A stretch of DNA of 64,000 nucleotides from Oculina patagonica. Its lineage: Eukaryota. The position numbers were made by a program, and so were the translations under genes. Location: positions 6,386,001 to 6,450,000 of the forward strand of contig NC_135767.1 of the NCBI RefSeq assembly GCF_052425735.1, read 5' to 3'. Of the stretch, positions 28,250 to 32,314 are shown one piece after another. The notes below the pieces were generated by a model that worked only from the letters and a program-made list of their open reading frames with translations, did not search any database and was not told the DNA's origin. The stretch's first letter is position 1. Each line of letters begins with the position of its first letter.

Positions 28250-30680
28250 AATTCAGTTCCATTTCTGAAGTACAAATTCGAGTTGTGAATTTTTTGGTGA
28301 AGCGCATTTCAGATGTGTAAGGTGAAACTCTGACCTGAGAAGTTGAGTAAAGCACAATTCGGATTTGTCAGTTAAAGACCAAGTTGTGAATTTTTTTAAG
28401 CACAACTTCAATTTGTAAAGCAAAAATCCAAGTTGCGAATTTTGTAAATTACAATTTCGATTTCAAAAGTAAATATCCAAGTTATGAATTTTAAAAATCA
28501 CGATTTCGATGTCTAAACTAAAAATCCAAGTTGTGAATTTTTTAATCACAATTTCGATTTCTAAGCTAAAAATCAAAGTTTTGAATTTTTTAAATCACAA
28601 TTTCGATTTCTAAAGTAAAAATCAAAGTTGTGAGTTTTTGAAATCACAATTTCGATTTCTAAACTTAAAATCCAAGTTGTGAATTTTGAAAAATAACAAT
28701 TTCGATTTCTCAAGTAAAAATCCAGTTGTGACTTTGTAAATCATAATTCGGATTTCTAAACTAAAAATCCAAATTCTGAATTTTGTAAAATCACAATTTC
28801 AATTTCTCAAGTAAAAATCTAGTTGTGAATATTTGTAAATCATAATTTGGATTTCTAAACTAAAAATCCAAGCTGTGAATTTTGTAAAATCACAATTTCG
28901 ATGTCTAAAGTAAAAATCAAAGTTGTGAATTTTGTAAATCACAGTTTTGATTTTTAAACTTAAAATCCAAGTTCAGTGTGTATTTTGAAAATCACAATTT
29001 GAATTTCTAAAGTAAAAAAATCCGTGGCACTTTCCGCCATTTCGTTTTTCGTTTGATTCATTTGGTTGGTAAAACTGAATATCTCTTTATTTTATATTTT
29101 CCGTTTTCGATAGTAGGATTGATTTTTGATAATTTTATCATGTGCTTTCTCCGTTTTTTCATATTTCCTTTTTCTGGGACCGTCTTATCCTTTATCCTTT
29201 TACCTTTTTCTTTATTCAATTTTCTATTTTCCCTTTATCAATATTTCGTTTTTCTTTTTTTCCTTTTTCCTTTTTCCTTTTTCCTTTTTTCTTTTTACCG
29301 TCTTCCTTTTTACTTTTTTCTTTATTCTCTTTTCTCCTTTTCCTTTTTCTGTATTCCTTTTTCATTTTATCTTTTTTCCTTTTCCTTTCTTCAATTTTTT
29401 TTCTTTCTCTCCATCGCATACCCAGTAACCTTTGCTGGCAAATTTTGCGCCATTTTCCGATTTCGCCATTTCCATGTGCGCTTCATTTGGTGCCTAGTGG
29501 TCTTCATGATCAAACTCTGACATGGAGAACTTTGTGCAAGTCCAAAGCGGAGTTTAAGTTGTTAAAGTAAAGCTCAATAATGACACGATTACTTTGTTGT
29601 CCAAGGTGTTTAGCCTGCAGGCCGAAACGATCTATCTAATCGGTGATGACAGTGTGGTAATGCCCACAATAGAAAAAAGGAGAAAAGAAAAAAAATAAAG
29701 AGTAAAGAAAAAAGGAAAAAGGTAAAACAAAAAACGGAATAAAGGAAAAAGGAAAATAGGAATAAAGAAAAACGAAAAAAGAAAAAGATAAATGAAATAT
29801 TAAAAAAGGAATAAAGAAAAGGATTAATCGGAACCAGAAAAAAGAATATGATTATTTATTAAAAAGAAAAGAGGAAAAAGGATAAAGCACAGGATAAAAT
29901 TATCAAAAACTTATCGCACTATCGAGAACGGAAAATATAAAATAAAGAGACATTCAGTTTTACGAACCAAACTAACCAAGCGAAAAACGAAATGGCGGAA
30001 AGTGCCACGGATTTAAAAAATCCAGATTGTAATTTAATTTTCAAGGAAACCGCAGTTCGGATATCAGAGTTTTGAATTTTTTTAAATCACAATTTCGATA
30101 TCTAAACTAAAAATCCAAATTCTGAATTTTGTAAAATCACAATTTCAATTTCTCAAGTAAAAATCCAGTTGTGAATTTTGTAAATCATAATTTGGATTTC
30201 TAAACTAAAAATCCAAATTCTGAATTTTGTAAAATCACAATTTCAATTTCTCAAGTAAAAATGCAGTTGTGAATTTTGTAAATCATAATTTGAATTTCTA
30301 AACTAAAAATCCAAGCTGTGAATTTTGTAAAATCACAATTTCGATTTCTAAAGTAAAAATCAAAGTTGTGAATTTTGTAAATCACAGTTTTGATTTTTAA
30401 ATTTAAAATCCAAGTTCAGTGTGTATTTTTAAAATCACAATTTGAATTTCTAAAGTAAAAAATCCAGATTGTAATTTAATTTTCAAGGAAACCGCAGTTC
30501 GGATATCACAAGTAGAAATCCAAGTTGTGAATTTCCAGGGGAGTAAATAAAGTACAATTCGGATTTCTGCAAAAAAAATCCGACTTGTGATTTTGGTAAC
30601 ACACAACTCGTAGTTCTCAGTTACAAAATCCGAATTCTGGTTACACAAAACTCGCATTTGTGCAAAAACAATTCTAGCTA
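28250..30680. repeat. ~49-bp AT-rich satellite made of alternately inverted half-units; interrupted by the element at 29019-30013
   Basis: tcaca recurs at 28546, 28595 and 28644. Unit TCACAATTTCGATTTCTAAAGTAAAAATCCAAGTTGTGAATTTTGTAAA, in which TCACAATTTCGATTT is approximately the reverse complement of AAATCCAAGTTGTGA. Confidence 0.9.
29019..30013. mobile_element. Foldback non-autonomous DNA transposon, copy A (995 bp), 6-bp TSD TAAAAA
   Basis: AATCCGTGGCACTTTCCGCCATTTCGTTTT ... AAAACGAAATGGCGGAAAGTGCCACGGATT, with ~350-400-bp imperfect T-rich/A-rich arms. TAAAAA at 29013-18 and 30014-19. The empty site is visible in the duplicate block at ~30450-30470. Confidence 0.9.
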
Positions 30681-30847
30681 CAAATTAAACAAAACATTCA
30701 CATCCAACAATCCGAGTAGTAAATTTATGCAAACTAACAACTTTAACTTTGCACTAAGATTGCACTTTGTGTATTTTGAGGAATATGCAACTCTGATCTC
30801 TTTGCTAAAAATCTGAGAAGTGGAAAGGAAAAAAAATGTCCCATAAA

Positions 30848-32215
30848 AATCCGTGGCACTTTCCGCCAATTCGTTTTTCGTTTGATTCATTTGGTTGGTA
30901 AAACTGAAATCTCTTTATTTTATATTTTCCGTTTTCGATAGTTGGATTAATTTTTGATAATTTTATCCTGTGCTTTCTCCGTTTTTTATATTTCTTTTTT
31001 CTGGTACCGTCTAATCATTTATCCTTTTACCCTTTTCTTTATTCAAATTTCTATTTTCTCTTTATCAATATTTCGTTTTTCTTTTTTCTTTTTTCTCTTT
31101 TCCTTTTTCCTTTTTTCTCTATTTCTTTTTTCTTTTTACCTTCTTCCTTTTACTTTTTTCTTTTCTTTTTTTCTCAATCGCATACCCAGTAACCTTTACT
31201 CGCAAATTTCGCGCCATTTTTCGCCATTTCCATGTGAGCTTCATTTGTTGCCTAGTGGTCTTCATGATCAAACTCTGACGTGGAGAACTTTGTGCAAGTC
31301 CAAAGCGGAGAACAAGGTCTTAAAGAAAAGCTCAATAATAGCACGATTACTGTGTTGTCCAAGGTGTTTAGCCTGCAGGCCGAAACGATCTATCTAATCG
31401 GTGATGACAGTGTGGTAATGCCCGATCCAGACACAATTTTCAATGTTGCGGACATATTATCCTCAATTTGTTACATACGAAGTACATGGTCAGCAAATAA
31501 CTCGCAAGCCCGACCCCATCGACAAGTTACCCGTACCCCTTGAAAATCGTTTTTCGTACCAATCATCTTACTTGGCCGCCGGCACAAGCGGCAAAAAGAG
31601 AGTAACCAGCTGCAGTAAGAAACTGTCGCTTCCCTCGCGACCGGATTTTACTTTCAAGTCAAGGAGAGAACATGGGCAAACTTAGAAATGGCGCAAGAAT
31701 ATTATTATCTCCGAAGTTGTGGATGGTAAACCTTCACCCATCTATCAGATATACCTCACTGTCAGTAAATGAAACAGCGTCGGTCGAGCAAGTCGCACGA
31801 ATGGTGGAAGAGGAGGTTGCAACACGTGTCATGCTGCCTTCTGAATCAACAATAGGAAAAAGGAGAAAAGAAAAATAAATAAATAGAAAAGAAAATAGTA
31901 AAAAGAAAAAAGGTAAAACGAAAAACGGAATAAAGGAAAAAGGAATAAAGGAAAATAGGAATAAAGAAAAACGAAAAACGAAAAAAGATAAATGAAAAAT
32001 TTAAAAAAGGAATAAAGAAAAGGATAAAGCGGAACCAGAAAAAAGAATATGATAATTTAATAAAAAGGAAAGAGAAAAAATGGATAAAGCACAGGATAAA
32101 ATTTTCAAAACCTCATCGCACTATCGAGAACGGAAAATATAAAGTAAAGAGATATTCAGGTTTTCGAACCCAACTAACCAAGCGAAAAATGAAATGGCGG
32201 AAAGTGCCACGGATT
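30848..32215. mobile_element. Foldback non-autonomous DNA transposon, copy B (1368 bp), 6-bp TSD CATAAA
   Basis: Same termini as copy A; CATAAA at 30842-47 and 32216-21; longer internal cargo. Confidence 0.9.
31280..31850 (+). pseudogene. Decayed ORF carried inside foldback copy B
   Basis: Protein-like segments joined by frameshifts and an in-frame TAG (31683-85): (M)ENFVQVQSG..SKVFSLQAETIYLIGDDSVVMPDPDT / QFVTYEVHGQ..REHGQT*KWRKNIIISEVVDGKPSPIYQIYL / NETASVEQVARMVEEEV. The ATG is preserved in copy A (29522-24). Confidence 0.6.
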
Positions 32216-32314
32216 CATAAAGCCGCGGTTCCACTGGGCTCCATAATCAACACGTGACTAACAAACACAAGAGGCTTGGGACCAAGTGTAAACCGAATGT
32301 AACACGTGACCTAC

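Follow-up and report, generated by a model that had tools for sequence, protein, structure and literature searches.

According to PMC10045372, complete IS3EU transposon families always end in TA..TA and GingerRoot families in TA..TA or TG..CA, both with 6-bp target site duplications (TSDs). Non-autonomous DNA transposons are classified by their terminal sequence and TSD length (excerpt of PMC4455052), and the biochemistry of IS3EU is presented as largely unexplored (excerpt of PMC11934779). The subject of this work is a pair of short insertions, copies A and B, located ~830 bp apart in a 64,000-nucleotide stretch of Oculina patagonica DNA (contig NC_135767.1, positions 6,386,001 to 6,450,000; hereafter, the window). 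Their family does not show the TA..TA or TG..CA termini: 65 of 68 ends read AAT, and its relatives begin with AAT or GGT. Taking all the data together, it is very probable that A and B belong to a family of short elements, likely internal-deletion derivatives of a divergent two-gene transposon related to IS3EU and GingerRoot, which are likely moved in trans by an integrase-type transposase and cluster beside their own copies.

The likeness to IS3EU and GingerRoot, as portrayed in parts of PMC10045372, PMC6839031 and PMC12730594, includes a 6-bp TSD without sequence preference, an integrase-like DDE core with motifs in the order HxD..KL / DG / RxDxGxE / N..ER.W, terminal inverted repeats (TIRs), a passenger gene opposite the transposase, non-autonomous derivatives, and occurrence in cnidarians and fish. 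The differences are in the ends of the lineage described below (AA..TT or GG..CC, with a conserved T[CG][AC]GTG), in its QNEKL motif versus G/T-N-H-K-L or G/S-Y-D-K-L in IS3EU, in its RING passenger, and in the length of its TIRs (250-960 bp versus 100-150 bp in GingerRoot).

Copies A and B and their family

The two copies, with their duplications and arms, are located in the window as follows:

29013..29018, + strand: left TSD of copy A, TAAAAA
29019..30013, + strand: copy A, a 995-bp non-autonomous element with ends AATCCGTG...CACGGATT; termini and TSDs exact
29019..29355, + strand: 5′ TIR arm of copy A, with T-rich 6-8-bp units inside; 82.5% complementary to the 3′ arm
29668..30013, - strand: 3′ TIR arm of copy A
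30014..30019, + strand: right TSD of copy A, TAAAAA
30842..30847, + strand: left TSD of copy B, CATAAA
30848..32215, + strand: copy B, a 1368-bp non-autonomous element, 92-94% identical to A
30848..31170, + strand: 5′ TIR arm of copy B; 82.3% complementary to the 3′ arm and ~80% identical to the arm of a sister subfamily
31881..32215, - strand: 3′ TIR arm of copy B
32216..32221, + strand: right TSD of copy B, CATAAA

Both copies run from AATCCGTGGCACTTTCCGCCA to TGGCGGAAAGTGCCACGGATT in the window sequence, and the 21-mer terminus occurs four times in the window versus none in 100 shuffles. A preliminary description, made from the letters of the window, had proposed two elements with AAT…ATT ends, and its coordinates and termini proved exact. 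Its claim of independent insertions, drawn from the different 6-bp TSDs, also held, TAAAAA being present on both sides of A and CATAAA on both sides of B. The two copies belong to one family and were inserted independently of each other. The empty site of A, which was said to be kept in a duplicate satellite block, is indeed there: the second block of the satellite considered below matches the joined flanks of A with 97.4% identity, and contains TAAAAA only once, at 30456-30461. This single TAAAAA implies that AAT/ATT is part of the element and that the TSD is of 6 bp. Concerning the inverted arms, they are slightly shorter than the ~350-400 bp first given, about 325-345 bp, and they are ~82% complementary in full and 85-89% over the outer 155 bp. 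Between the arms, A and B have a unique interior of 310-710 bp, A being without 425 bp of the interior of B, and are therefore not pure foldbacks.

Genome searches were run on the 529-Mb animal assembly that contains the window; coral homologues and coral metagenome runs point to a coral. The search with the 21-bp terminus, recommended in the preliminary description together with a tabulation of TSDs, gave 50 exact occurrences versus none for a control. Among 24 paired copies, the TSD was a perfect 6-bp repeat in 17, had one mismatch in two and was of 5 bp in one, while four had none. The 17 perfect TSDs comprised 16 different hexamers, with 40% GC and no consensus common to them, i.e., without sequence preference. 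The 68 ends, counted with a pattern that allowed up to five mismatches and hence mildly biased, were AAT (65), TAT (2) and CGT (1). The family comprises no fewer than about 40 short elements, which end in AAT…ATT and have target duplications of 6 bp; most are 1.0-1.7 kb long. The median identity of ~91% among 20 aligned copies, together with three groups at 99.2-99.9%, indicates an old family with recent bursts. Copy A itself has a 99.2% identical twin at G000:C7:24872539-24873528, with its own TSD AGAGAT.

A relaxed search with a 12-bp terminus gave 109 matches, and 20 stretches were inspected around matches outside the 21-mer set: two contained the sister subfamily and the rest other repeats. 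An unrelated repeat also has AATCCGTGGCAC, then AG and often TTAA, and is the source of many of the extra 12-mer matches (L047/L048, L052, L053, L055, L057, L059-L062, L064, L065). At L044 (G000:C7:17343876-17349236), two family copies 18 bp apart with one common outer TSD, CCAGTG, are nested in a third copy; this composite appears to have moved via its outer ends.

Relatives of the family and the QNEKL transposase lineage

The interiors of both copies contain remnants of a gene for a RING protein:

29522..29668, + strand: 5′ remnant of the RING-protein gene in copy A; the ATG is present, but a stop follows at codon 11, and the 425-bp deletion relative to B truncates the remnant
31280..31850, + strand: decayed first exon of the RING-protein gene in copy B; 87 codons open, then frameshifts

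The exon remnant of B displays 33% identity over 54 aa with ORF1 of a 9-kb family (pairwise E 1e-7); no significant match was found for the 3′ part of the exon. When the genome was searched with the decayed frame of B, seven equal weak matches (34%, E ~0.3), all of them in the 9-kb element, appeared below the window family's own copies. The 9-kb family begins AATCAGTGAAAGTTTTCGGCAATT, and its terminus AATCAGTGAAAG has 17 of 24 nucleotides in common with A and B. It has six uninterrupted copies, 99.1-99.8% identical, and one interrupted copy (~98%), with 6-bp TSDs in six of the seven. A RING finger lies at the end of its ORF1 (Pfam E 0.002, which falls short of the cut-off). The opposite strand carries a transposase of five exons; GT-AG introns are present in five of the six copies read, and splice joints of introns 2 or 3 occur in contigs of three out of four runs. 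The 9-kb AATCAGTG family is young, largely intact and autonomous-looking, and its transcript appears to be spliced. Its copies are at G000:C7:17698711-17707674 and six other places (L066-L072, L086-L092, L107); the C7 copy is without the intron-2 donor present in five others, and three copies have an extra ~300-bp insert in that intron.

A second relative is the sister short subfamily (L105, TSD CCTATG; L046), which has the AATCCGTG terminus and TIRs ~80% identical to those of B. It keeps decayed transposase exons 1-2, which are 45-85% identical in pieces to the database protein P0006, its closest. It is likely that A and B are internal-deletion derivatives of a two-gene transposon.

Copies A and B hold no transposase, and it is in the lineage linked to them that the IS3/integrase-like DDE transposase with the core motifs of IS3EU is present. 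The homologues of this enzyme, ~400 aa long, match PF24764 rva_4 over its cut-off and come, considering the best 120 of 235 matches, from sponges, cnidarians, a brachiopod, a hemichordate and many fish. The motif HxDQNEKL occurs in 108 of 125 retrieved proteins, and the commonest catalytic spacing is D-58-D-39-E (72/125). A model built from 20 homologues (pLDDT 88) resembles retroviral integrases, IstA, MuA and TnsB. The QNEKL profile gave 85 and 55 bits for two full TA-ended IS3EU-type transposases of the same genome, versus 1.6 for a Polinton integrase. Pfam searches with single exons were mostly blank, the lineage profile had no matches among PDB sequences, and tblastn on plasmids gave none.

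Regarding the ends, all the families of the QNEKL lineage in which they could be defined show (AA|GG)T[CG][AC]GTG. In the same genome, they are AATCCGTG in the window family and its sister, AATCAGTG in the 9-kb family, AATGCGTG in a 6.8-kb family, GGTCAGTG in the C8 family (TSD CGATGA) and GGTCCGTG in the C12 family. The TSD of the latter is unreadable because the end abuts a second inverted end; at this place (G000:C12:12598500-12600700, L099), the two TIR ends together make up a palindromic stretch of 1.4 kb or more. A metagenome scan, run after the pattern had been noted, added two cases in independent contigs: one complete element of 5.4 kb, with AATGCGTG ends and the TSD CTCAAG, and a multi-copy family of another animal with its boundaries at GGTGAGTG. 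As a control in the same genome, three canonical IS3EU families end in TACGG, TATGG and TATGA, each with a 6-bp TSD, and no TIR pair was found for a fourth one (Y). The protein evidence and this TA-ended control bear out the earlier suggestion of an IS3EU-like family with a non-canonical terminus and a 6-bp TSD. Young canonical TA-ended families (L108-L113, L120-L123, L126-L127) have HECT-like passengers and modular TIRs of 250-500 bp, and one of them has ~ten near-identical transposase matches.

Excerpts of the literature on IS3EU, GingerRoot and the superfamilies with 6-bp TSDs describe no ends other than TA or TG. The AAT/GGT-ended branch of IS3EU-type transposons is widespread and apparently undescribed. 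Zebrafish carries the gene and is well curated, and derivatives may, we presume, be filed in Repbase/Dfam as unclassified elements with 6-bp TSDs. It may be speculated that ends of the form RR+TNNG, compared to TNNG in IS3EU, look as though the cut had been shifted two bases outward. MuDR/P-type foldbacks have long modular TIRs, as the window family does, but TSDs of 7-9 bp. No MuDR, P or hAT transposase was linked to the family TIRs, although a 6-bp TSD is also a trait of hAT6 (excerpt of PMC12730594).

The rank of the lineage can be considered from its distance to the TA-ended transposases. The identity between both is 22-24%, and in a quick, effectively unrooted tree of 34 rows, a very long branch (SH-aLRT 99) splits the QNEKL proteins from three TA-ended ones; a Polinton integrase taken as the outgroup fell inside the ingroup with a branch length of 10 and was uninformative. 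Compared by eye, the motifs follow one another as in the published cores (Data S3 of PMC10045372; 14 of IS3EU and 7 of GingerRoot), in none of which QNEKL or NEKL is present. Together with the QNEKL transposase, 13 metagenome loci and three families of the same genome have a RING gene, versus none of 18 stretches around canonical elements, where the passenger is HECT-like by a weak Pfam match. The distance, the long branch, the different ends, the passenger and the absence of NEKL would suit a separate superfamily, sister to IS3EU and GingerRoot, rather than a branch of IS3EU. This is a possible, but not the favoured, interpretation, as the Pfam family, the motif order, the 6-bp TSD and the two-gene layout are common with IS3EU, and the published GNHKL and GYDKL subgroups of IS3EU are themselves distant. 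Equally tentative is its broader form, an uncatalogued superfamily-level lineage of animal DNA transposons ranging from sponges and cnidarians to zebrafish and characterized by QNEKL, a RING E3-like passenger, ends of two purines plus TNNG, homing to its own copies, and young spliced autonomous copies.

Proximity of the two copies and the 49-bp satellite

The closeness of A and B is not an isolated case in the family. Among 43 loci, seven pairs (in five clusters) are no more than 1 kb apart, while uniform placement expects 0.009 and gave a maximum of two in 20,000 shuffles. Clustered neighbours are mutually just 89-94% identical, like random family members, and of four near-identical young copies, two sit at less than 0.5 kb from older, dissimilar copies. 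Copy A did not reach its place by a local hop from B, since the satellite duplication is 2.6% diverged and A was inserted afterwards, yet A and B differ by 6-8%. It is likely that new copies tend to land less than 1 kb from, or within, older copies, which accounts for A beside B; a likely cause would be that transposase bound to resident TIRs recruits new insertions. Self-insertion is known for rice MITEs, according to a passage of PMC5172404 that cites Jiang and Wessler 2001. In the multimers of rice and maize described there, non-autonomous TIR elements likewise adjoin, or are nested in, members of their own family by independent insertions; unlike them, the window family is of 1-1.5 kb, of low copy number, and belongs to an integrase-type superfamily.

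The preliminary description had noted how near A and B are to each other, and had inferred a preference of the family for a palindromic 49-bp satellite, in or next to which both would be inserted, or for the host element of this satellite. Two blocks of it are in the window:

28250..29012, no strand: 49-bp satellite block 1, host sequence outside the element; TRF 28379-29018, period 49, 13 copies, with decayed units back to ~28245
30068..30640, no strand: 49-bp satellite block 2, duplicate of block 1 holding the empty site of A (30456-30461); 97.4% identity to the joined A flanks, TRF 30068-30477

The unit is partly, but not fully, palindromic (score 57 versus 25 +/- 10 in shuffles, 57 being reached by 3 of 300). 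Copy A is inside the array; B is past the recognisable satellite, its nearest decayed unit being at 30735-30822 with E 1.2. That the family targets this satellite, aided by a resemblance of the satellite to the element end, would agree with the position of A within the array, with that of B at ~200 bp or less from its decayed end, and with AAAATCC occurring 15 times in it, but it is highly improbable. Searching 107 other loci (733 kb), the flanks of other family copies included, with the satellite profile gave nothing with E under 0.5, and the twin of A is elsewhere, with its TSD AGAGAT. A genome search gave, besides the window, just two weak matches of 67-71%, as a lower bound. The likeness of the 3′ junction of the satellite, AAAAAATCC, to the element end seems a coincidence, because ATCC follows the TSD in none of the 16 other perfect-TSD sites. 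Satellite targeting is refuted for this assembly. The satellite would be just a bystander, and clustering beside own copies is a better explanation of why A and B are so close. The satellite (28250-30640) is near locus-specific in the assembly and has a 98-bp higher-order structure. It may represent the inner part of an old element, the ends of which were not found.

Origin and mobilisation of the short copies

The parent of the family would have been a transposon with long modular TIRs, with a RING-finger gene running inward from one end and a spliced ~400-aa DDE transposase (HxDQNEKL…DG…RxDHG…ERxW) running inward from the other, as in the 9-kb relative. Its deletion could have left a TIR, the start of the RING gene and a TIR, giving the window family, or a TIR, the start of the transposase and a TIR, giving the sister subfamily. 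The short elements would then be moved in trans by the integrase-type transposase of the lineage. This enzyme would bind the subterminal repeats and cut outside the (AA|GG)T[CG][AC]GTG ends, probably with cut-and-paste chemistry, and the ends would be joined at a 6-bp stagger without target sequence preference. New copies landing less than 1 kb from, or inside, older ones would have left A beside B.

As to the enzyme acting today, it might be the transposase of the 9-kb AATCAGTG family rather than that of a direct parent missing from the assembly. The 9-kb family is the youngest intact relative, has 17 of 24 terminal bases in common with the short copies, and encodes an enzyme that groups with P0006 (support 96) and appears spliced, while some short copies are mutually 99.2-99.9% identical. 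The two families differ, however, in their subterminal repeats (46-47-bp units versus T-rich 6-8-bp units), and the remnant in the sister subfamily is nearer to P0006 than to the 9-kb enzyme (69% versus 47% over exon 2). Considering both sides, we regard mobilisation by the 9-kb family as rather doubtful.

A number of observations weigh against the derivation from an IS3EU/GingerRoot-related parent with trans mobilisation and clustering. The window family itself is without transposase sequence; its link to the lineage runs through the TIR homology with the sister subfamily and through the ORF1 match, which is weak genome-wide (E ~0.3). Genome searches, which give lower bounds, found no intact direct parent, and 13 stretches with orphan ends and weak interior matches contained no long transposase-bearing copy; of the long DDE-transposase copy that the preliminary description had recommended looking for, only relatives were found, i.e., the 9-kb family with its transposase and the sister subfamily with exons 1-2. 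The label 'RNA?' of the runs with splice joints was a guess, and their contigs still contain intron 1. The TSDs of the 6.8-kb family are imperfect, with a clean 6 bp in one of three. Upstream of the transposases in 58 metagenome loci, the 8-bp end motif was not enriched (31 versus 25 for a reversed control); an 8-mer is too short for enrichment, so that just boundary-defined ends count, and in the metagenomes these come from just two independent families. Screening 32 long loci for flanking inverted repeats yielded one clean element. The tree was quick and effectively unrooted, and left out Repbase sequences. Finally, the expectation of 0.009 clustered pairs is for uniform placement and ignores regional bias, and the list of 43 loci was compiled by hand, with a few coordinates approximate.

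With regard to annotation, a TA-end rule would miss, or leave unclassified, a widespread AA/GG-ended branch, which the end motif and the QNEKL signature provide a means to find. The signature could also re-annotate as transposases many 'uncharacterized' genes of fish and corals, such as zebrafish si:ch211-227p7.1. The young, apparently spliced 9-kb copies offer a substrate for studying how integrase-type enzymes handle ends that are neither TA nor CA, and why they insert next to copies of their own family. Should the sister-superfamily interpretation be true, young spliced autonomous copies would make its end chemistry testable.

A Polinton/Maverick origin of the short elements, with long TIRs and 6-bp TSDs, was suggested by a pair of family termini that are 17.5 kb apart with a perfect TSD and enclose open reading frames resembling a protein-primed polymerase, an rve integrase and a capsid protein. 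This origin is practically discounted: the enclosed element is bounded by perfect 248-bp TIRs and a target duplication of its own, and the sequence of B continues without a break from one side of the insertion to the other (B 1-893 and 884-1368). A Polinton parent was rejected: the polymerase/integrase/capsid element, the only one with such genes between family termini, inserted later into a short copy of the usual kind. Polintons are described with AG.. termini and a 6-bp TSD (excerpt of PMC6839031). Compared to these and to the coral elements in parts of PMC11131425, the family is alike in its 6-bp TSD, long TIRs and integrase-type enzyme, and unlike in having no polymerase or capsid homology, in its AAT..ATT rather than AG.. 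ends, and in that the Polinton-type integrase is unscored by the lineage profile. The nested element, Polinton/adintovirus-like and of ~16 kb (G000:C9:23998446-24015972, L031 1504 to L032 8014), has long open frames and TIR ends ACACAC...GTGTGT, not AG..; its target duplication reads 5 bp when the ends are taken as symmetrical.

Elsewhere in the window there are two further tandem arrays, one of a 28-bp unit repeated 21 times at 20989-21586 and another of a 206-bp unit repeated 2.6 times at 56057-56591.

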